Assembly (NCBI GenBank): GCA_964391975.1
Contig: CAYMNZ010000001.1
Span: 132,465 to 196,464, forward strand
DNA from: an uncultured Candidatus Saccharibacteria bacterium
Lineage (GTDB): Bacteria; Patescibacteriota; Minisyncoccia; Phycocordibacterales; Phycocordibacteraceae
DNA: 64,000 nucleotides
Direction: 5' to 3'
The notes below the pieces were generated by a model. That model made no database searches, had not been told where the DNA came from, and was given only the letters and a program-made list of their open reading frames with translations. Both the position numbers and the translations under genes were made by a program. This document shows positions 27,983 through 61,003 of this stretch, piece after piece; positions within the stretch are counted from its first letter, which is position 1; every line of letters starts with the position of its first letter.

Positions 27983-29788
27983 ATGAGCACGCCTACTCGT
28001 ACCTGGTGGTTTCTCCTCGGTGTTGCCGTAGTGCTGGGTGTTTTGGTGTTTTTCGGCGTTAGTTCTATCGTGCCGGGGGAACACTTGGGTGCACAGCTTC
28101 TAAAGACGCTCTTCGCTGGACCAGGCGGCTGGTTGTTCCTGGTTCCGGGCGTTCTGTTAGCGTTTGTGTTCACGCGCATTAGTTTGCACAGAGGAAAAAA
28201 ACTCTTCTCAGAAGAACTCAAACCTATTGAGGCGTTTATTTTTGCTTGTGCAGTGTATCTCTTTCTCGTATACGCGTCGTACCTCATTCTGACGGGGGTA
28301 CTCTACTTTGCAGCAAGTGGCGCTGGTAGTGCTGGTTTTGTATTCGGATTGTTATTTGCATACGCAGTGACTGGGGCATTACCAACGCTATATCTGGGGT
28401 TCCTCGTAACGATGGCACTGATGCTTGTGGCGTTCCGGTCGCCGAGGCAGGAGCCCGGCACCGTGCGATCATCGTTGCTGCGTCGGGGATTCATCATTGC
28501 AGTCTTCCTCGTTTCTCTGTATGCACTGAACGCATTTGTTCCGATTGGTATGGCGCTGAACCAACCCTGGCTCTGCAACCTGGCCTATAGCAGCCGCGCC
28601 AAGGCTGAGTGTTTCCTTGATGCCCAATCACAAAGTACTGCTTCCTCTAAGTACACCGTCATCCAAACTGACTACAAACAAATTAAAAATCTCAAGGATG
28701 TTGGTGGCAAGTTGGCGTACGCTTTTGAGCGACATGACGGCACATCAGGTGTTGTGTACGACGGCCAGCTAGTGAGTGGGGCGTATGAAAAAGTAGGTAT
28801 TCTTCCTATCGCAGAGGTTGGCGGCACACTGGCATACGAAGCGTATAAGGACGGAAAACAGATTATCGTCTGGGACGGTAAGGAGTATGGGAACGAGTAC
28901 GACATAGCACTCAGCCCGACCGATGTCGGCGGAAAGCTCGCATTTCTCGCGCGGAGGGGCACGCGAGAAACCGGACTGCACCAATTCGTCGTCTGGGACG
29001 GCAAAGAGTATGGAACTCAGTTTCAGCAAGCTAACGATATTCGCGATTTTTCTGGCCAACCGCTATTCAAAGCGAAAGGAGCAAACGGCGATTATGTTGT
29101 CGTTGGCGATACAAGCTACGGCCCCTACGGCTATGTCAGTTCTCTGGTAGTACAAGACGGACACTGGGTAGCCAAAGGCGGCAACAATCCCACGTACTAC
29201 ATCGTTGACGGTGTGCTATCTGCGGTTCCCACAAACGATATCGGTCAGGGAGTCTTTGTGAACGATGAGTTCGCGTACGGAGCCGCATCTTTAGAGCACC
29301 CATTAATCATGTACCAGGGCAAAGAGGTTGGCAGAGCCGTTAACTCTGAAGGAGGACCCTTTGAGATTAATGGAAAGGTAGGGTATGTGGCTCTGCTCCC
29401 AGACAATAGAGCGCAGCTTATGGTAGACGGACAGCCGGTTGGTCCGGCCATAGCAGGCAGGGTTCATAACATAGCGGTTTCGGAAGGAGGGAGAGTAGCA
29501 ATCCAAGTCGAAGACGGTTCAAAGTGTAGTGCTGTTGGCGGAGCGGTATACCTTGATGGTGAAAAAGTGTATGAAGGCTGCACCAGCAATCCGTACGGCT
29601 TTTATGGGGAAAAGCTCTTGTTCTGGATAAAAGAAAACGGCATGTCGTTGCTATGGTACGACGGAGAGAAAATCGGTCATGGATTCTACGGCTTCAACTA
29701 CATCGAGCTTATAAACGGCAAGATCGCCATCGCTGCATTCGCATCAACGAACAAGGGCATAGAATATTCGTTGCTGCTTGAGCAATAG
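27983..29788 (+). CDS. Membrane-anchored tandem-repeat protein (~38-aa W-D-G-K-E-Y-G / WG-like repeats)
   Basis: ~6 N-terminal TM helices then ~10 repeats of form VGGKLAY...DGK..VVWDGKEYG..YD. Confidence 0.5.
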   Translation: MSTPTRTWWFLLGVAVVLGVLVFFGVSSIVPGEHLGAQLLKTLFAGPGGWLFLVPGVLLAFVFTRISLHRGKKLFSEELKPIEAFIFACAVYLFLVYASYLILTGVLYFAASGAGSAGFVFGLLFAYAVTGALPTLYLGFLVTMALMLVAFRSPRQEPGTVRSSLLRRGFIIAVFLVSLYALNAFVPIGMALNQPWLCNLAYSSRAKAECFLDAQSQSTASSKYTVIQTDYKQIKNLKDVGGKLAYAFERHDGTSGVVYDGQLVSGAYEKVGILPIAEVGGTLAYEAYKDGKQIIVWDGKEYGNEYDIALSPTDVGGKLAFLARRGTRETGLHQFVVWDGKEYGTQFQQANDIRDFSGQPLFKAKGANGDYVVVGDTSYGPYGYVSSLVVQDGHWVAKGGNNPTYYIVDGVLSAVPTNDIGQGVFVNDEFAYGAASLEHPLIMYQGKEVGRAVNSEGGPFEINGKVGYVALLPDNRAQLMVDGQPVGPAIAGRVHNIAVSEGGRVAIQVEDGSKCSAVGGAVYLDGEKVYEGCTSNPYGFYGEKLLFWIKENGMSLLWYDGEKIGHGFYGFNYIELINGKIAIAAFASTNKGIEYSLLLEQ

Positions 29789-31649: not shown

Positions 31650-31966
31650 CCTCCCGGACCGATACAGGCAATCGCTCTGAGTTTCTCAGAGAGGAAAGTC
31701 CGAACACAGGCAGCGAAAGCTGCAGAAAGGTAGCGGGTAACGCCCGTCCGCAGCAATGCGCGAGGTGCGAACAGTGACGTCAACGACGAAAGTCCGCGAC
31801 ATCCTTCGGGATGAACTTCATCGTAAGGTGAAGATGAAACGGCAAAATCCTTACCCCTGTGCAAGGCCGTGCCCCGCAAGAGGAGTGCCGCTTGAGGGCG
31901 TCGGTAACGACGCTCCCAGATAAATGATTGTCCGCGACAGAATTCGGCTTACCGTATCGATCCAAC
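31650..31966 (+). ncRNA. rnpB: RNase P RNA (bacterial type)
   Basis: P4 halves GAGGAAAGTCCGAAC and ACAGAATTCGGCTTA; GGGTAACGCCC loop; P1 pairing GGACCGATAC/GTATCGATCC; lies in a 440-nt gap and is covered only by short spurious ORFs. Confidence 0.7.
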
Positions 31967-31971
31967 AACAT

Positions 31972-38406: not shown

Positions 38407-38661
38407 ATGGATAAGCAAGTCACTATTTACAGCACCCCAACTTGTCACTTCTGCCAGATGAGCAAGGAGTACTTCAAGGAGCACGGTATTCAGTACACTG
38501 AATTCGATGTTGCTGGAGACCAGGCAAAGCGCCAGGAGATGATTGAGAAGTCCGGTCAGATGGGCGTTCCGGTCATATTCGTCGGCGAGGAGATGATTAT
38601 CGGCTTCGACAAGCGTCGTTTTGACGAGTTGTTCGGCGTCGCGACTGAGCCGGGAATGTAG
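38407..38661 (+). CDS. Glutaredoxin-like (NrdH/Grx) small redoxin
   Basis: TCHFC CxxC active site; 84 aa; GVPVIF. Confidence 0.75.
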   Translation: MDKQVTIYSTPTCHFCQMSKEYFKEHGIQYTEFDVAGDQAKRQEMIEKSGQMGVPVIFVGEEMIIGFDKRRFDELFGVATEPGM

Positions 38662-54040: not shown

Positions 54041-54412
54041 ATGATTAAAGAAAAAAGTCTTGCAGCCTTTTACAAGGCATTGCCGAAAACACATGCGCCC
54101 GCGCTGAAGAAACTACGCGCACAGATAAAGAAGCTCTATCCCACCGCCGTCGAGCAAATCAGCTACGGCATGCCGCTCTTCAAGCTTGATGGTAAGCCGC
54201 TCGGTGGCGTACAGGCTGCTAAGAATCATTCGGCAATCTTTGTGTGGAGTGGCACCGCCCTGCGACCGCTAAAAAAGATGCTTGCTGGTTACGACACCTC
54301 CACAGGCACTGTGCGCTTTCCTCCTCAGAAGCCCCCTCCTCTTAAAGTGGTCAAAGCAATCCTCGCTTCCCGGGAGAAAGAAATTCGGAAGGCTCTGGGC
54401 ACGAAAAAATAA
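54041..54412 (+). CDS. DUF1801 (YdhG-like) domain protein
   Basis: ISYGMPLFKLDGKPLGGVQAAKNHSAIF characteristic of DUF1801. Confidence 0.6.
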   Translation: MIKEKSLAAFYKALPKTHAPALKKLRAQIKKLYPTAVEQISYGMPLFKLDGKPLGGVQAAKNHSAIFVWSGTALRPLKKMLAGYDTSTGTVRFPPQKPPPLKVVKAILASREKEIRKALGTKK

Positions 54413-54414
54413 CT

Positions 54415-54489
54415 TGGTGACCCCACGGGGAATCGAACCCCGATTTACGCCGTGAAAGGGCGCTGTCCTAACCGTTAGACGATAGGGCC
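54415..54489 (-). tRNA. tRNA-Glu (anticodon TTC), CCA encoded
   Basis: Reverse strand: GGCCCTA acceptor (two G-U pairs), anticodon arm GCGCC-CTTTCAC-GGCGT nearly identical to E. coli tRNA-Glu, T-arm CGGGG-TTCGATT-CCCCG. Confidence 0.75.
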
Positions 54490-54547
54490 TTTTGCTGCCT
54501 GGCTATCCTAGCATTTTGACCCCCTAGAATGCTAGGATGCGCCTTAC

Positions 54548-54634
54548 GGAGAGGTGGCTGAGTGGTCGAAGGCGCCGCACTCGAAATGCGGTGTAGGGGA
54601 AACCTTACCGTGGGTTCGAATCCCACCCTCTCCG
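54548..54634 (+). tRNA. tRNA-Ser (anticodon CGA)
   Basis: GGAGAGG acceptor, anticodon arm CCGCA-CTCGAAA-TGCGG, long variable arm, T-arm GTGGG-TTCGAAT-CCCAC; no encoded CCA. Confidence 0.8.
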
Positions 54635-54743
54635 CTCTGGTAAGATAGGGAAATGAGCACCAAAGCTCTTCTACTCCTCTCAATTGTGCTCGGGCTTATC
54701 ATCATCGCGCTCATCGTCGCGCATTTCGTCGTACCTCTCTAGT

Positions 54744-56222
54744 ATGGAAGGCCACCAGGAACTAAAAGCATACATACGGGACCGGCTTGCTGCGGGGGCG
54801 TCGCGTGCCGTTATCGAACAGGAACTCCTCAACGTTGGATGGAAACCGGAGATAGTCCGGGCAGTACTTCGACCCAAACGTAACCTCCGCAAGCCCCTTC
54901 TTATCGCTGCGGGAGTACTGTTCCTTGTCGTCGCTAGTACGGTTTTGGCAGTCTGGGGACCCACTACCCAAGGCGCACGCCTTCCGATTCCTGCGGAGTG
55001 GACGCAACCACCACTCTCGCACGGAGAAGAGCCCGCGCTCGCGAACCCTGAGTTCTTTGCGAAGGTGAAGCAGGACTTCATCGACAAGAAGTCTGACCTC
55101 ATCGAGGCCGACCTCTCAACGATGACACTTAACGTTTATAAAGCAGGGGAGTTGGCGCTCACCGTTCCTATTAAAACTAAGGGACGTGAAGGCTCATGGT
55201 GGGAGACCCCCGCTGGGCTCTATTCAATACAAACAAAAGAGGATTCACACTTCTCAAGTTTTGGCCGTGTCTACCAACCCTACTCCATGGCCTTCCAAGG
55301 AAACTTTTTCATTCATGGCTGGCCGTATTATCCAGGCGGGGAACCGGTAGCAAGTACGTATTCAGGCGGATGCATCAGGCTTGCTGACGAAGACGCGAAA
55401 AAGGTCTTCGATATGGTAGATGTGGGCACCCCGGTGCTCGTCTTTGAGCACGATTTCTCCTCTGACCAATTCTCTTACGCAGACCTCAACAAAGACTCCC
55501 TTTCTGCCGGCAGCTATCTTGCAGCAGATATCCGCAACAACGAAGTCTTTTTCTCAAAGAGTCCAAAGAAACAAGTGCCCATCGCTTCCATCACGAAGCT
55601 CATGACGGCGCTTATTGCGACTGAATATCTCAACCTCGACACCGTTACGACGGTGCCGCGCGAAGCTATCGTCTACACCTCGCTCCCACGTCTGCGAGCC
55701 GGACAAGAAATAAGCATCTACCAGCTTCTCTTCCCGCTCTTGACTGAATCCTCAAACGAAGCCGCTGAGACTATTGCGCGCCACTATGGTCGTGACAGCT
55801 TCGTCGCCCATATGAATGAGAAGGCCAAAGCTATCGGCATGACCGACACCACGTTCGTTGACCCCTCTGGCGCTTCAGCAGAGAACGTCTCGACGGCAGA
55901 AGATCTCTTCATGCTCGCCAAGTACGTCTACAACAACCGTAGTTTCGTTTTCAACATCACCTCCGGAGACCTGAAGGGGAGTGCGTATGGCGCGAGCGTC
56001 TTCACGGACCTCAGGAACCTCAACCACCTCATCACCAGCAAGTACTTCATCGGAGGCAAGGTAGGCCAGACGCTGGCTGCAAAGGAAACTGACCTTATAG
56101 TTCTTGAGATTCCTATTGGTTCAACGACGCGCCCTATTGTTCTTGTGGTACTCGGCTCGGAGGATTCAGAGTCAGATTCTCAAGCGTTGCTTGACCGCGT
56201 GCTCGACCGCTACGCGAGGTAG
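54744..56222 (+). CDS. Fusion protein: L,D-transpeptidase (YkuD) domain + serine D,D-carboxypeptidase (S11/PBP5-like) domain
   Basis: N-terminal TM; YkuD catalytic HGWPYYPGG...SGGCIRL; then SITKLM (SxxK), SSNEAA (SxN), GGKVGQT (KTG-like). Confidence 0.7.
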   Translation: MEGHQELKAYIRDRLAAGASRAVIEQELLNVGWKPEIVRAVLRPKRNLRKPLLIAAGVLFLVVASTVLAVWGPTTQGARLPIPAEWTQPPLSHGEEPALANPEFFAKVKQDFIDKKSDLIEADLSTMTLNVYKAGELALTVPIKTKGREGSWWETPAGLYSIQTKEDSHFSSFGRVYQPYSMAFQGNFFIHGWPYYPGGEPVASTYSGGCIRLADEDAKKVFDMVDVGTPVLVFEHDFSSDQFSYADLNKDSLSAGSYLAADIRNNEVFFSKSPKKQVPIASITKLMTALIATEYLNLDTVTTVPREAIVYTSLPRLRAGQEISIYQLLFPLLTESSNEAAETIARHYGRDSFVAHMNEKAKAIGMTDTTFVDPSGASAENVSTAEDLFMLAKYVYNNRSFVFNITSGDLKGSAYGASVFTDLRNLNHLITSKYFIGGKVGQTLAAKETDLIVLEIPIGSTTRPIVLVVLGSEDSESDSQALLDRVLDRYAR

Positions 56223-56242
56223 CGCGTGCTAGCATAGCTTCC

Positions 56243-57106
56243 ATGATCGCAACTGGTGTCCTCCTTGCACTTCTCGCTCTGGTTGGTTGGGGAGTAGGGG
56301 ATTTCCTCATTCAGCGCACTACGAGGCTCGTCGGAAGTGCTAAGGCACTGTTTTTCATAGGACTTGTTGGCTTCCTCGCTCTCTCACCCTTTGTCCTCCC
56401 AGACCTTGGGCAGATTTCCTTTGCTGATATTGCGCTTCTCTCTGTCCTCTCGATTATCGTGATGGCAGGAGCGGCCTTCGACTTCGAGGCACTGCGGCAA
56501 GGAAAGATTGCGGTGGTTGAGCCAGTGGTGGGTCTCGAACTTCCAATGGCGGTAGGCATCAGCGTTCTCTTTATCGGTGAATCCCTTGGGACCACTCAAT
56601 TCCTCTTCATGCTCCTGGTGTTCGCTGGCACCGTGCTCGTGGTGATGCGAAGCTTCCACCACGTGTCACTTCGTCTTCTTGAGAAAGGCGTGTGGCTCGC
56701 CTTCGCTGCGGCAATTGGCACCGCGCTGACTTCAGTGCTTATTGGTGTATCGAGCCAGGCAATCTCACCACTTGTTGCTGTGTGGTTCTCGCATGGCGCG
56801 CTCGCGCTTGTTGCCTTCCTCGTCATCCTTCGTGATGGCACGCTCCACACCACCTGGAAGCAAATCAAGAAGCATCCGGTTACCATCGCTGCACACAGTA
56901 TCTCTGACAACGTCGCGTGGGTGGCGTTTGCAACTGCAGTGACCTTCGTGCCGATTTCGGTGGCTAACACCATCAGCGGAGGATATATCGCGCTTGCCGT
57001 GCTGCTCGGCCTCTTCCTTAATAAGGAGAAGGTGAAGCCCCATCAGCTGCTCGGTATCTTTTTGGTGGCCATAGGCGTCATAGCCCTCTCGTATTTCTAC
57101 GGATGA
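56243..57106 (+). CDS. DMT/EamA family transporter
   Basis: 10-TM two-repeat protein. Confidence 0.7.
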   Translation: MIATGVLLALLALVGWGVGDFLIQRTTRLVGSAKALFFIGLVGFLALSPFVLPDLGQISFADIALLSVLSIIVMAGAAFDFEALRQGKIAVVEPVVGLELPMAVGISVLFIGESLGTTQFLFMLLVFAGTVLVVMRSFHHVSLRLLEKGVWLAFAAAIGTALTSVLIGVSSQAISPLVAVWFSHGALALVAFLVILRDGTLHTTWKQIKKHPVTIAAHSISDNVAWVAFATAVTFVPISVANTISGGYIALAVLLGLFLNKEKVKPHQLLGIFLVAIGVIALSYFYG

Positions 57107-57137
57107 TGCAGAAGGACGGAACGGGTATACTAGCCTG

Positions 57138-58328
57138 ATGAAACCAGCGGATTGCGAGGAGTGTGGCGGAGACGGTATCTACCACCGCCTGACCTATATC
57201 ACGGTGGCGCTTGATGACCTCCTGCGCCCCTTCTTCACCCCTAATGCCTTCCTGAAGCCGATTACTTCCTGGATGTATGCGGTGGAGAAGGATCTCACCC
57301 CAAAACTCCTCAATTGGTTCGTGAAGCGCGGTTGGGCGAAGAAGGTTACTGACTGGGACGATGAGACCCCGCTTTTGGCTCGCATGCTCTGGGAGGAGGG
57401 AAAGGCGCGGGGGATAGAAATCTGGGAGTTCCGTCTCTTCGGGCTGGCACGCAATATTTACGTCGCGAAGCTTACAGACGGCACTGAGATAGCGTATGAA
57501 GGCATCCCGCTGCCGCCGGCCGGACTCACACAAGCATGGTGGCTCGACAACAAAGGCATACTCAAGAAGAAATTTCGTGAGCTCGGTATTCCAGTAGCAA
57601 AAGGTGCAGCTGCATTCACCCGTACGCAAGCAAAGGAGCTCTACAACAAACTTTCAGCTCCCGTCATAGCCAAGCCACACTCAGGCTCAGCCTCTCGCCA
57701 CACTACACTCCACATCACTGACGAACGTGACCTCATTCGCGGGTTTGAGATAGCGAAAGAAGTCGCTCCCTTTGCGGTCATCGAAGAGGAGCTTGTGGGA
57801 GGTGTTTACCGCGCAACCGTGGTCAACGGGAAGCTTGCAGCAACGCTTAGGCGCGACCAGCCGCATGTGATAGGCGACGGGAAGTCGAGTGTCCGGAAGC
57901 TTATGCTCAAGGCCAACGAGCACCCTGCTCGCCAAGGACCCTTCTTCCACCGCATGTACGTCACCACCCCAACGGCATTCCGTGAACTTGAGTGGCAGGG
58001 GCACCAACTCTCTGATATCCCTAAGAAAGGGGAGCGGGTCATCCTCCACCCGAAAATTAACTGGAGCGTGGGCGGCACCACCACCGATGTTACGGACGAA
58101 GTGCATCCGGACAACCAGGAACTCTTTGAGCGCATTGCAAAGGTGCTCGCCGCTCCGGTGGTCGGCATTGATTTCATTATTGGAGATATGAACCAGTCCT
58201 GGAAGGAACAGGACCGCTGCGGCGTCATTGAGTGCAACTCAATGCCATTCTTTGATAACCATCACCTGCCGTTTGAGGGGAAGCCTCGAAACGTAGCGGG
58301 GGATATTTGGGAGATGGTACTTAAGTAG
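57138..58328 (+). CDS. Stand-alone ATP-grasp enzyme, cyanophycin-synthetase-like
   Basis: ATP-grasp core (PVIAKPHSGSASRHT, GGTTTDVTDEVHPDN..VGIDFIIGD resembling CphA N-terminal ATP-grasp); N-terminal CEECGG. Confidence 0.6.
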   Translation: MKPADCEECGGDGIYHRLTYITVALDDLLRPFFTPNAFLKPITSWMYAVEKDLTPKLLNWFVKRGWAKKVTDWDDETPLLARMLWEEGKARGIEIWEFRLFGLARNIYVAKLTDGTEIAYEGIPLPPAGLTQAWWLDNKGILKKKFRELGIPVAKGAAAFTRTQAKELYNKLSAPVIAKPHSGSASRHTTLHITDERDLIRGFEIAKEVAPFAVIEEELVGGVYRATVVNGKLAATLRRDQPHVIGDGKSSVRKLMLKANEHPARQGPFFHRMYVTTPTAFRELEWQGHQLSDIPKKGERVILHPKINWSVGGTTTDVTDEVHPDNQELFERIAKVLAAPVVGIDFIIGDMNQSWKEQDRCGVIECNSMPFFDNHHLPFEGKPRNVAGDIWEMVLK

Positions 58329-58330
58329 AT

Positions 58331-58828
58331 ATGGACAACCCGGACAAGAAATTCGGAAGGTTTCCTTTCTTCAAGTCCAAAGAAGCGCGTCTCACGGAAA
58401 AGCTCGAGCGCTCCTTTAACCGTATCAACCTGCAGTATCAGCGAGTGAAGGCGCATCATGCAAACTTTCTCGTTAACACCGACTATGACGGCGTACGCGA
58501 GGAACTCCTAAACCGCGCTGGTACGTTTACCAGTGAGTCAGATGAACTTCTAAACCGGGAAGGAAAAGAATTCATCGCTGACATCCATCAGCGTGTACAT
58601 GAAGTAGATACCTACCAAGGAGACATAGAACGGCACATGGTCTCCGTCCTCCTCCTTTTGCGTATCCCACCCGAGTATATGCAGAACCCAGATGCGCTCA
58701 TGCAGGAGTATCCGCTGCTGGGACACTACTATCGTGCTATGCAGTCACTCGTTACCGCATGCGAAGCTTTCATCGCTGAGTACGACCAGGTATTCCCAGG
58801 GCGCACTGAGAGACCTACCGAGCCTTAA
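58331..58828 (+). CDS. Hypothetical protein translationally coupled to the ATP-grasp gene
   Basis: 165-aa ORF starting 3 nt after the ATP-grasp stop; no recognisable domain. Confidence 0.4.
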   Translation: MDNPDKKFGRFPFFKSKEARLTEKLERSFNRINLQYQRVKAHHANFLVNTDYDGVREELLNRAGTFTSESDELLNREGKEFIADIHQRVHEVDTYQGDIERHMVSVLLLLRIPPEYMQNPDALMQEYPLLGHYYRAMQSLVTACEAFIAEYDQVFPGRTERPTEP

Positions 58829-59735
58829 GCCAGAGGTAGATATCCTCAAGCGCCTTCACAGCGTCGCCTGCAGCGATGTTGTTCTGGTGGTAGAGCTCGT
58901 CGGTGCAGTCTCCTGCGGCCCATACGCCCTCAATGGGGGTGCGCTGATTGCGAGGGTCTGCGGTGACGCGCTTGAACTTGTCCATAGGAAGGAAGCCGTC
59001 GGCGAAGTCAGTGTTTGGAATCACACCAATTTCAACGAAGACACCGGTGACCGGAAGCGTGGTCTTCTCCTTCGTAACAGAGTCTTCAACCACCACACCC
59101 GAGACAAACTTCTCGCCCAAAATTTCTACGGGCTGCGAGTTAGGCATACCCTTCATGTTTGGGTGTGCGAGCACCTTGTTGACCGTAATAGCATCGGCAC
59201 CATACTCGGCGCTGCGATGAAGAAGGGTAACGGTCTTCGCATACGCAAGGAGCTGCGCAGCAGTCTCAAAGCCTGCATTGCCACCACCCACCACCACGAC
59301 ATCTTGTCCGGAGAAGAGAGGACCATCGCAGGAAGCACAGTACACGACACCTTTGTTTTCAAACTGCGCTGCCCCTGGGATATCAAGCTTGCGACGACCT
59401 GCACCGGAAGCGACGAGAACTGCACGGGCGACGTATTCCTTTTCTCCCGCAGTAACAGCAAAGCCCTCACCTGATTTACCAATCTTAGTGACGCGCACTC
59501 CTTCAACAACCTCAACGAACTCTCCCTTGTACGCAAAGAGGTGCTCTTTGAGCACTTTGGCAAGCTCACTTCCTGGAATCTTGATAGTACCAATCCAGTT
59601 CTCGACGCCCTCAGAGACGGTGGACTGTCCGCCGAACTCCTCGGTGATGAGAATAGTTTTTAATTGTTTGCGAGCGGCATAGACGCCTGCAGCAACTCCT
59701 GCTGGTCCGCCGCCGATGATGATGAGGTCATGCAT
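58815..59735 (-). CDS. trxB: Thioredoxin-disulfide reductase
   Basis: IIGGGPAGVAAGVYAAR FAD motif; redox-active CASCDG; NADPH GGGNAGFE. Confidence 0.9.
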   Translation of the reverse strand: MHDLIIIGGGPAGVAAGVYAARKQLKTILITEEFGGQSTVSEGVENWIGTIKIPGSELAKVLKEHLFAYKGEFVEVVEGVRVTKIGKSGEGFAVTAGEKEYVARAVLVASGAGRRKLDIPGAAQFENKGVVYCASCDGPLFSGQDVVVVGGGNAGFETAAQLLAYAKTVTLLHRSAEYGADAITVNKVLAHPNMKGMPNSQPVEILGEKFVSGVVVEDSVTKEKTTLPVTGVFVEIGVIPNTDFADGFLPMDKFKRVTADPRNQRTPIEGVWAAGDCTDELYHQNNIAAGDAVKALEDIYLWLKAR

Positions 59736-59785
59736 AGTCGAGAGAGTATAGCAGAAACCCCGCTTTCGCGGGGCTCTGGATAACG

Positions 59786-61003
59786 TTATTTATTCTTGTT
59801 CCTTCGAAGGAAGGAAGGGATGACGCCGAAACCGTTGTCGTCTTCCTCGACAATCGGGGTGACAGGCTTCTCCTCACGGCGCTGGGGCTGTGCAGTAACC
59901 ACAGGCTCCTCCTTCTTGCGAGGGGCGTCCTCTTCAGGCTCCTTGCGCTCAAGGACGTCGTTGTAAATCTTGCCGCGGGTGTCGGTCTGCTCCTTAGGCG
60001 TAAGGGAGAAGAGAGAGCGCTCGCCCATAGTCGTCTCGCCAGTGCCCTCTGGGAAGCCCGTAGCGATGACGATGATGCGAATCTGGCCCTTCTTGAGCTT
60101 CTCGTCGCGCATGATACCGAAGATGACCTTGGCAGTCTTGTCGACGGACTCGGAGACGACCTTGGCTGCCTCCTGCACTTCGAGGATGCCGAGGTCTTCG
60201 TTGCCTGCGACCACGAAGAGCACGCCCTTGGCTCCTGCGATAGAGACATCGAGGAGTGGGGAATTGACGGCCTGCGTTGCTGCATCCTTGGCGCGGTTGT
60301 CGCCCTCGGAAATACCAATACCCATGAGTGCAGGACCTGCACCTTCCATGATGGCCTTAATGTCGTTGAAGTCGGTGTTGATTTCACCGGGAGTGACGAT
60401 GATGTCAGAGACACCTTCCACTGCCTGGCGAAGAATCTCGTCACAGAGTGCAAACGCGCTCTTGGCTGAGGTGTTTGGCTCAACAATGGCGAGGAGCTTG
60501 TCGTTGGGAATGATGATGAACGCATCTACCTCCTTCTTGAGTTCAGCAAGACCGCGGTCAGCAATATCCTTGCGCTGTGCGCCCTCAAACGAGAACGGAC
60601 GAGTGACTACGGCGACCGTAAGTGCTCCCATCTCCTTGGCAATCTTTGCAATTACTGCAGAAGCGCCGGTGCCAGTACCACCGCCCATACCACAGGTGAT
60701 GAACACCATGTCGGAACCCTGGAGTCCTTCCTGAATTTCCTGGCGGGTTTCTTCTGCTGCGCGACGTCCGAGGTCGGGGTTCATGCCGGCACCAAGACCG
60801 CGGGTGAGGTTCTTGCCGATGTGAATCTTGCGCTTGGCGAGGGAGCGGTGAAGGTCCTGCGCATCGGTGTTGATGGCGATGAACTCAACTCCCTTCACTT
60901 TGGAGTTGATCATGTGGTTCACGGCGTTTAAGCCCGAACCGCCCACACCGACGACCCGTATCCGGGCAAACGTCTCGATTTCAGGCACGATGCGCTTAGA
61001 CAT
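59786..61003 (-). CDS. ftsZ: Cell division protein FtsZ
   Basis: GVGGSGLNAV, tubulin signature GGGTGTGA, NTDAQ. Confidence 0.95.
   Translation of the reverse strand: MSKRIVPEIETFARIRVVGVGGSGLNAVNHMINSKVKGVEFIAINTDAQDLHRSLAKRKIHIGKNLTRGLGAGMNPDLGRRAAEETRQEIQEGLQGSDMVFITCGMGGGTGTGASAVIAKIAKEMGALTVAVVTRPFSFEGAQRKDIADRGLAELKKEVDAFIIIPNDKLLAIVEPNTSAKSAFALCDEILRQAVEGVSDIIVTPGEINTDFNDIKAIMEGAGPALMGIGISEGDNRAKDAATQAVNSPLLDVSIAGAKGVLFVVAGNEDLGILEVQEAAKVVSESVDKTAKVIFGIMRDEKLKKGQIRIIVIATGFPEGTGETTMGERSLFSLTPKEQTDTRGKIYNDVLERKEPEEDAPRKKEEPVVTAQPQRREEKPVTPIVEEDDNGFGVIPSFLRRNKNK

Follow-up and report, generated by a model that had tools for sequence, protein, structure and literature searches.

A probable stand-alone ATP-grasp amide ligase of a large Patescibacteria family, related to the CphA G domain and GshF and encoded beside a lineage-specific ORF

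The window analysed here (the whole 64,000-nucleotide stretch of DNA; GC ~54%; annotated over 18-40 kb and 52-64 kb) encodes a 396-aa protein. It belongs to a large family in Patescibacteria, whose members are ~400 aa long, have an N-terminal CxxC...H extension of their own and are sister both to the CphA (cyanophycin synthetase) G domain and to the glutathione-synthetase module of GshF. Judging by its sequence, we regard the protein as probably a stand-alone ATP-grasp amide ligase that would make a small peptide or conjugate and that has no conserved link to the 165-aa ORF following it (ORF165). Both ORFs lie where the preliminary description had placed them (Table 1), and its recognition of a stand-alone CphA-like ATP-grasp ligase is borne out: residues 138-394 match the CphA-G/GshF clade. 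The two-component system that it had proposed for the ligase and ORF165 found no support in a comparison of the ligase loci, as detailed below.

Table 1. Coordinates of the ligase, its domains and the neighbouring features in the window.
Feature	Position	Strand	Basis or remark
Divergent tRNA-Glu(-)/tRNA-Ser(+) pair	54415..54635	.	Syntenic anchor
Single gene, YkuD (L,D-transpeptidase) + Peptidase_S11 (DD-carboxypeptidase)	54684..56222	+	Pfam
EamA-family transporter gene	56243..57106	+	Pfam; 31 nt upstream of the ligase, co-directional
396-aa stand-alone ATP-grasp ligase, CphA-G/GshF clade	57138..58328	+	ORF list
Ligase residues 1-65, N-terminal extension: C6-x2-C9...H16 knuckle, then two long helices	57138..57332	+	
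Ligase residues 66-137, conserved alpha/beta region before the ATP-grasp core	57333..57548	+	
Ligase residues 138-394, ATP-grasp core including the lid and an omega-like insert	57549..58319	+	SuCphA1 alignment
ORF165, 165-aa lineage-specific ORF, fast-evolving	58331..58828	+	Open in L001; dN 0.32
Thioredoxin-reductase-like gene (trxB)	58815..59735	-	NCBIfam TRX_reduct 265.6 bits, cut-off 343

The 396-aa ORF is far from a chance reading frame. A set of 5.8 billion proteins contained 718 homologues; the enzyme is widespread in small genomes, where the preliminary description had called truncated CphA-like enzymes a recurring feature. The window ligase shares 93% identity with its counterpart in the nearest genome (L001), at a dN/dS of 0.029, comparable to that of housekeeping neighbours. 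The best 120 of the 718 homologues are 384-422 aa long (nearly all 394-414 aa); most share 57-64% identity along the full length, and their source names are "hypothetical", "cyanophycin synthetase" or "D-Ala-D-Ala ligase-like". An exhaustive search gave 412 cluster representatives at E<=1e-30. In our literature search, no account of a stand-alone CphA-like ligase from Patescibacteria came up.

The two motifs quoted in the preliminary description, GGTTTDVTDEVHPDN and VGIDFIIGD, were both found in the 396-aa protein. Its residues 138-394 aligned with positions 213-470 of the 862-position cyanophycin synthetase model of NCBIfam (E 9e-58), and solved CphA1 chains matched the same residues at E 5e-39 in a search of PDB sequences, where CphA1, CphA2 and GshAB were the structures with matches. 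The likeness to CphA spans about two thirds of the protein and not only the C-terminal half described before. Weaker NCBIfam matches were GshAB, through its ATP-grasp module (1e-35; model positions 486-751 of 756), and N-acetylglutaminylglutamine synthetase (9e-27), and those of RimK, LysX and Ddl were marginal. Against full-length models the ligase scored 196 bits for cyanophycin synthetase (cut-off 850), 123 bits for GshAB (cut-off 425), so that it lacks the GshF/GshAB architecture, and 31.6 bits for RimK TIGR00768 (cut-off 143.4), which leaves it outside the RimK family; it also did not reach the family threshold and full-length alignment of a D-Ala-D-Ala ligase. Pfam returned ATP-grasp_3 alone, below threshold, and no Mur-ligase domain, as the preliminary description had stated of the second CphA domain.

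Comparison with solved enzymes places the ligase more closely. The G domain of CphA1 (PDB 7LG5, 7WAC) has the same ATP-grasp fold with lid and omega-like inserts, and is ~35% identical over 255 residues. However, CphA1 consists of N, G and Mur-like M domains (~870 aa), whereas the ligase lacks N and M and instead has its own 65-residue extension. CphA2 (PDB 7TA5, 8FXH), of ~630 aa with an N domain and a truncated M domain, polymerises beta-Asp-Arg; the ligase corresponds to its G-like part alone (chain residues 217-476 of 642) and has a different pocket. In GshF/GshAB (PDB 3LN7), an N-terminal gamma-glutamylcysteine ligase (GshA) is fused to the ATP-grasp module, whereas the window ligase is unfused. 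RimK, LysX and ArgX act on protein C-termini, and the ligase is far below the RimK threshold.

Active-site residues were mapped with the ligase-CphA1 sequence alignment in SuCphA1 numbering, with residue roles taken from the structural work (PMC9427784). The register of the alignment was accepted because K261 and H267 fall where the structural paper puts them. The ligase carries the conserved Lys, Arg and Asp/Glu/Asn Mg2+ site of the ATP-grasp superfamily. Specifically, the catalytic residues K139, K179, R225, D345, E365 and N367 are present, five of them equivalent to CphA1 K261 (K179), R309 (R225), D431 (D345), E450 (E365) and N452 (N367). By its aligned residues, the enzyme is catalytically intact, with the ATP, Mg and acyl-phosphate machinery complete.

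The substrate pocket is another matter. In CphA1, the incoming Asp is bound at its side-chain carboxylate by Arg323 and Asn394 and clamped at its alpha-carboxylate by Arg458, and Glu215 binds the primer Arg (PMC9427784). The two side-chain binders are kept in the ligase as R239 and N308; both are invariant in the close subfamily and variable in distant members, suggesting that the close Paceibacteria subfamily has its own specificity. The P-loop residue His267 of CphA1 aligns with A185 of the ligase, a position that is Ala or Gly in 118 of 120 close members, and Arg458 is replaced by D373, which is Asp in 120/120 close homologues. Glu215 falls on a variable ligase position, placed by ungapped extension of the alignment alone. 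In GshF the P-loop residue is Tyr or Phe, and Leu and Met/Tyr occupy the positions of E215 and R458 (PMC9427784); in the fusion forms described below, the P-loop position is Arg. Given Ala and Asp at positions where CphA1 has His and Arg, and GshF has Tyr/Phe and Met/Tyr, the pocket appears to be neither CphA-like nor GshF-like.

The catalytic core and the C6-x2-C9...H16 knuckle are also kept in 90 distant representatives and six fusion proteins. C6, C9 and H16 themselves are conserved in the alignment of close members, distant members and fusion forms, and this CxxC...H knuckle is a putative zinc site. In the predicted ligase structure, helices follow at residues 16-33 and 40-64. The extension (residues 1-65) was unmatched in Pfam, NCBIfam and PDB sequence searches, and residues 66-137 are probably a pre-ATP-grasp subdomain.

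The conserved feature of the ligase locus is its convergent synteny with trxB, ftsZ and ftsA. Of the 80 ligase-bearing genome loci compared, 56 have trxB downstream of and convergent to the ligase; the members of this comparison set are mutually related, so that its counts are not independent events. Neighbour clustering places ftsZ within the next three genes of at least 27 loci, and ftsA comes after ftsZ wherever it is annotated. The slot between the ligase and trxB usually measures ~310-350 bp, and 18 loci have assorted genes inserted into it. Other recurrent upstream or downstream neighbours, identified by inspection, were RpoD-like, DnaG, DsbA-like, PurF, Prs, MGMT and TsaC proteins; these clusters appear to be unrelated housekeeping genes with no shared functional theme. 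The upstream genes vary among loci. The EamA gene is next to the ligase in the window, L001 and L015 only, and a YkuD and Peptidase_S11 gene near the ligase is common to the window and L001 only. In many relatives, among them L023, L027, L038, L040 and L053, a divergent tRNA pair is directly upstream of the ligase, and in the window both genes are inserted between the tRNA pair and the ligase. A promoter and terminator scan of window positions 54300-59900 gave nothing that clearly exceeded shuffle expectation, and Rfam at gathering thresholds returned only tRNAs and RNase P RNA for the window, with no match in the ligase-trxB slot. A small glutaredoxin-like gene is present elsewhere in the window.

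Some relatives of the ligase have companions that may be informative on its function. Six cluster representatives are 721-860-aa proteins in which the complete ligase unit, including the CxxC knuckle, forms the C-terminus; their N-terminal ~430 aa had no Pfam or NCBIfam match. This fusion partner is a BshC-like, class-I-aaRS-like module, in contrast to GshA in GshF, and BshC (PDB 4WBD) serves as a comparison for the relatives' module, not for the window gene. As a separate gene, the module occurs in many Patescibacteria lineages and abuts the ligase in L039. In L087 and L213 its neighbours are a ligase homologue and a gene for a CntK/DapF-like racemase, and in L214 the module, a racemase-like gene and the ligase follow one another co-directionally with overlapping or abutting ends. 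In L212, a single protein joins the module to a racemase-like domain and is encoded next to a glutamate-cysteine-ligase-like gene (258 bits) and a second ATP-grasp gene. For three further module genes in other genomes, the surrounding 5 kb contain no ligase. His racemase models matched the racemase-like protein at a sub-threshold E of 2e-20, and by inspection it has both DapF-type Cys motifs. Our literature search found nothing on fusions of BshC-like and ATP-grasp proteins. The 64-kb window contains no copy of the module or of the racemase-like gene, and among the module homologues listed none lies on a contig of 742 kb, the length of the JGI metagenome contig that holds the window, so that this context may not apply to the window's genome.

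Among the alternatives to a ligase for a small peptide or conjugate, we judge a glutathione-synthetase-like step toward a Cys-containing low-molecular-weight thiol peptide, with a link to thiol redox, to be unlikely, although several observations fit it. The ATP-grasp module of GshF/GshAB is the second-best structural and family match of the ligase, the fusions of the BshC-like module with the ligase mimic the layout of GshF, BshC and MshC are cysteine-adding enzymes in thiol synthesis, and the L212 fusion adjoins the glutamate-cysteine-ligase-like gene; the trxB synteny in 56 loci and the glutaredoxin-like gene would also suit a thiol role. However, trxB is always convergent and hence not co-transcribed with the ligase, and its constant position may simply be an ancestral gene order. 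Furthermore, the Ala/Gly P-loop of the ligase lacks the Tyr/Phe of GshF, a glutamate-cysteine ligase and a BshC-like gene are both absent from the window, and the module has no detectable sequence similarity to BshC models, the activity of BshC itself being putative.

ORF165 is a real gene. It was also called by the source pipeline, and it is open in L001, where it has 61% nucleotide identity and one in-frame indel. As the preliminary description had noted, the ligase stop (TAG, 58326-58328) lies 3 nt from the ORF165 start (ATG, 58331), with two bases between them, and ORF165 is probably co-transcribed and translationally coupled with the ligase; its 3' end overlaps that of the convergent trxB by 14 bp. 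This arrangement had suggested a two-component system; that ORF165 serves the ligase as an obligate partner, carrier or substrate we now find quite improbable. Of the 80 genome loci, tblastn and an iterated profile picked out just two with relatives of ORF165, L001 and L008, which makes 3/81 ligase loci with the window included, and in L008 a PRPP-synthetase-like gene (by inspection) sits between the ORF165 relative and the ligase. The 5.8 billion proteins contained no homologue besides ORF165 itself. Between the window and L001, dN is 0.32 for ORF165 and 0.009-0.041 for five neighbours, so that ORF165 changes about ten times faster than its surroundings, and the ligases of genomes without ORF165 keep every family-invariant residue.

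The sequence of ORF165 did not point to a ligation acceptor either. The Pfam check suggested earlier for both ORFs gave no match to ORF165 in Pfam or NCBIfam, PHROG and PADLOC had no match for ORF165 or its two relatives, and PADLOC had none for the ligase. The conserved C-terminal Glu/Asp of a carrier protein or S6-type acceptor, also proposed for inspection, was not found in the three members: their C-termini (TEP, QES and TGS) are neither conserved nor acidic, their pI values are 5.5-7.1, and ORF165 is hydrophilic. The preliminary description had itself named two observations that would speak against it. One, a full-length alignment of the ligase with a characterised ligase, was not obtained; the other, a downstream ORF that is not conserved next to the ligase, is what the loci show. 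Sitting in the variable ligase-trxB slot, ORF165 has no conserved link to the ligase and is a lineage-specific extra, not a conserved partner. The tight 2-nt coupling could still reflect a lineage-specific functional link.

In relatives, a different element occupies the slot or lies beside the ligase. A cassette on the ligase strand was found in 45 of the 80 mutually related genome loci, and in L213 too. It starts with a promoter-like pair (TTGCCT, ~17 nt, TAnAcT), followed by a ~95-nt leader with an invariant GGTCGA..TTGCCAGCC block. In the long helix of the leader, GGAUGGCUUU pairs with AAAGCC.AUUC, and GGACGG is accompanied by CCGUUC in seven sequences. Covariation supports this helix: the cells are paired in 91% of cases, compared with 42-61% for slid partners, double changes number 16, compared with 1-6 in controls, and 0/500 shuffles reached the observed value. 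The fold of a single leader had a z of -3.8. Note that a C for U in the 3' arm is compensated within the CCATTC motif and not in the 5' arm. A hairpin and T-run 3' of the ligase in relatives was considered as an intrinsic terminator and rejected: the T-run pairs with an A-rich stretch downstream of it, with compensatory changes. At Rfam gathering thresholds, ten related loci gave tRNAs only, with no family match for the leader. A leader-motif scan of metagenome contigs gave at least 120 matches; among those listed, one had the full hairpin, and none had the ligase or trxB alongside.

The third element of the cassette is an ORF that begins at the leader-terminal ATG and is open in 43/43 complete loci, whereas in shuffled sequence a frame of >=30 codons was open in 27% per locus. 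It has 30-64 codons, with a median of 35% Asp+Glu and 0% Lys/Arg/His over 41 distinct sequences. Its C-termini are EEAA or EAAA in 24/43 and end with Ala in 33/43; the last residue varies among A, E, V and G. In L025, L042 and L044 the whole cassette precedes the ligase, whereas in the other loci it follows it. In a simple neighbour-joining tree of the ligases, the cassette is restricted to one crown clade, and the lineage of the window and L001 lies outside this clade, among relatives without the cassette. Consistently, the covariance model of the leader gave a best hit of 11 bits (E 0.5, filters off) in the window, where we take it to be absent, and nothing in L001 and L008; motif, HMM and composition scans for the cassette in the window were all negative.

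The ligase might be supposed to modify or extend this ribosomally made, hyper-acidic peptide as scaffold, carrier or tail substrate, the peptide being encoded elsewhere or lost in the window's lineage. RimK-S6, LysX-LysW, TTL-tubulin and the CphA primer are analogues, the same-strand cassette occurs on either side of the ligase, the frame is open in all complete loci and often ends in Ala, and a peptide C-terminus is the site of CphA-G chemistry. We nevertheless hold this explanation to be improbable: the cassette is absent from the window and from deeper branches of the ligase, it comes with a promoter-like element and a leader of its own, and the last residue of the peptide varies. The relatives' acidic peptide also lacks a LysW-like zinc domain. 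Moreover, the cassette is always near trxB as well, so that its link to the ligase is not exclusive.

A role in the cell wall, either as a Ddl-like dipeptide ligase or as a ligase of stem-peptide side chains, is very unlikely in our assessment. In the window, the ligase follows on the same strand the gene for YkuD and DD-carboxypeptidase domains and the transporter gene, ftsA and ftsZ are close to the ligase, and the DapF-fold racemase paired with the ligase in relatives would fit D-amino-acid or DAP chemistry. Finally, a minimal cyanophycin or poly-aspartate synthetase is almost certainly not encoded here, even though the CphA G domain is the best sequence match and R239 and N308 are kept, because the ligase has neither the M nor the N domain of CphA, scores far below the model cut-off, and does not conserve H267 and R458, and perhaps not E215 either; with no Mur-like domain and a pocket unlike that of CphA1, it cannot add Arg and so cannot make cyanophycin.

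Returning to the stand-alone amide ligase, the chemistry would be that of the CphA-G/GshF clade. Using ATP, the enzyme would convert a carboxylate into an acyl-phosphate; a short peptide or an amino-acid derivative, phosphorylated at its alpha or C-terminal carboxylate, is the most likely substrate. An incoming amino acid would then attack the acyl-phosphate through its amino group to form one new amide bond. The altered pocket, with D373 and the Ala/Gly P-loop, makes a small peptide or an amino-acid conjugate the most likely product, as opposed to a polymer; this view of substrates and pocket derives from the ligase-CphA1 alignment. In the window's genome, the ligase apparently stands alone.

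The fusions and operons of relatives with the BshC-like enzyme and the racemase suggest stepwise, non-ribosomal assembly of a short peptide. We tentatively raise the possibility, less likely than not, of an undescribed Patescibacteria pathway in which a BshC-like ligase, a CntK/DapF-fold racemase and the ATP-grasp ligase make a short peptide without an NRPS, a large clade adding the EEAA acidic peptide and the window lineage being reduced to the last ligase. Such a peptide might contain Cys or a D-amino acid, and it might be assembled on or attached to the acidic peptide (30-64 aa), which would be expressed behind the leader RNA beside thioredoxin reductase.

For the window alone, the outcome is a well-defined enzyme from which ORF165 is removed as a misleading partner. 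The family is ~60% identical class-wide with a dN/dS of 0.03, and such strong conservation of a ~400-aa enzyme in the small genomes of Patescibacteria indicates that it is probably important to them. Databases name its members "cyanophycin synthetase" or "hypothetical protein", and by our analysis the cyanophycin label is wrong. The candidate true context is the BshC-like enzyme, the racemase and the acidic peptide behind a covarying leader RNA. If this context holds, the leader would be a previously uncatalogued cis-regulatory RNA motif, and the ligase would be part of a new route, either independent of the ribosome or based on a scaffold peptide, by which this uncultivated radiation makes a small peptide metabolite.

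We compared the interval between the stop codon of the 396-aa stand-alone ATP-grasp ligase gene and that of the convergent, thioredoxin-reductase-like trxB gene across 56 related loci. The interval was approximately 310–350 bp in the majority of loci, and in 18 loci it was occupied by unrelated genes, including a PRPP-synthetase-like gene, a BshC-like module, the family of ORF165 (the 165-aa ORF just 3' of the ligase gene in the window) and further orphan ORFs, indicating that this slot is a hot spot of gene turnover.

A cassette adjoining the ligase gene was conserved in 45 of the 80 ligase-carrying genomes compared, and consisted of a promoter-like element, a leader RNA of ~95 nt and a hyper-acidic ORF of 30–64 aa, whose C-terminus was usually EEAA or EAAA. 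The leader RNA has a long covarying helix as well as an invariant block, GGTCGA..TTGCCAGCC, and matches no Rfam family. The cassette was not found within the 64-kb window. Furthermore, a second conserved small ORF (50–61 aa; ...LSIIWEKLVHDL...EEEERLHTE...) was located 3' of the ligase gene in four loci; the acidic cassette lies upstream of the ligase gene in three of these (L025, L042 and L044), and L019 is without it.

The tRNA-Glu/tRNA-Ser pair of the window corresponds to a divergent tRNA pair found directly upstream of the ligase gene in many relatives. In the lineage of the window, the tRNA pair and the ligase gene are separated by two genes, YkuD+S11 and EamA, which were apparently inserted there, and the YkuD+S11 gene was common only to the window and the nearest genome, L001. 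A TATACT sequence, not called by a consensus promoter scan, is present 6 nt 5' of the ligase ATG. No Shine-Dalgarno sequence was seen ahead of this ATG, and this arrangement may reflect a leaderless or near-leaderless ligase mRNA.

Elsewhere in the window, the RNase P RNA is a compact version, because the match covers 312 nt as against the 367 positions of the model. The 601-aa protein, for which no Pfam match is on record, is encoded between the gene of an M48 peptidase and the riboflavin genes. The 84-aa glutaredoxin-family protein could be NrdH-like, and may have a bearing on the hypothesis that the ligase acts in low-molecular-weight thiol peptide synthesis.

Positions of features in the window and in related loci (L-numbers)
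Feature	Location	Strand	Remark
Ligase–trxB slot	window 58329-58814
Acidic cassette (examples)	L010:6637-6869; L053:7214-7420
Acidic cassette (example)	L213:4687-4929	-
Second small ORF	L019:7223-7408; L025:3142-3327; L042:5146-5301; L044:2450-2602
Divergent tRNA-Glu/tRNA-Ser pair	window 54415-54489 and 54548-54635	- and +
Same kind of divergent tRNA pair	L023, L027, L038, L040, L053
YkuD+S11 gene	window 54684-56222	+	YkuD L,D-transpeptidase and Peptidase_S11 (DD-carboxypeptidase)/beta-lactamase-like domains in a single polypeptide
TATACT	window 57126-57131
RNase P RNA, bacterial class A	window 31656-31967	+	120 bits (gathering score 100)
84-aa glutaredoxin-family protein	window ~38407-38661	+	position from L091:20425-20679
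601-aa protein	window 27983-29788	+
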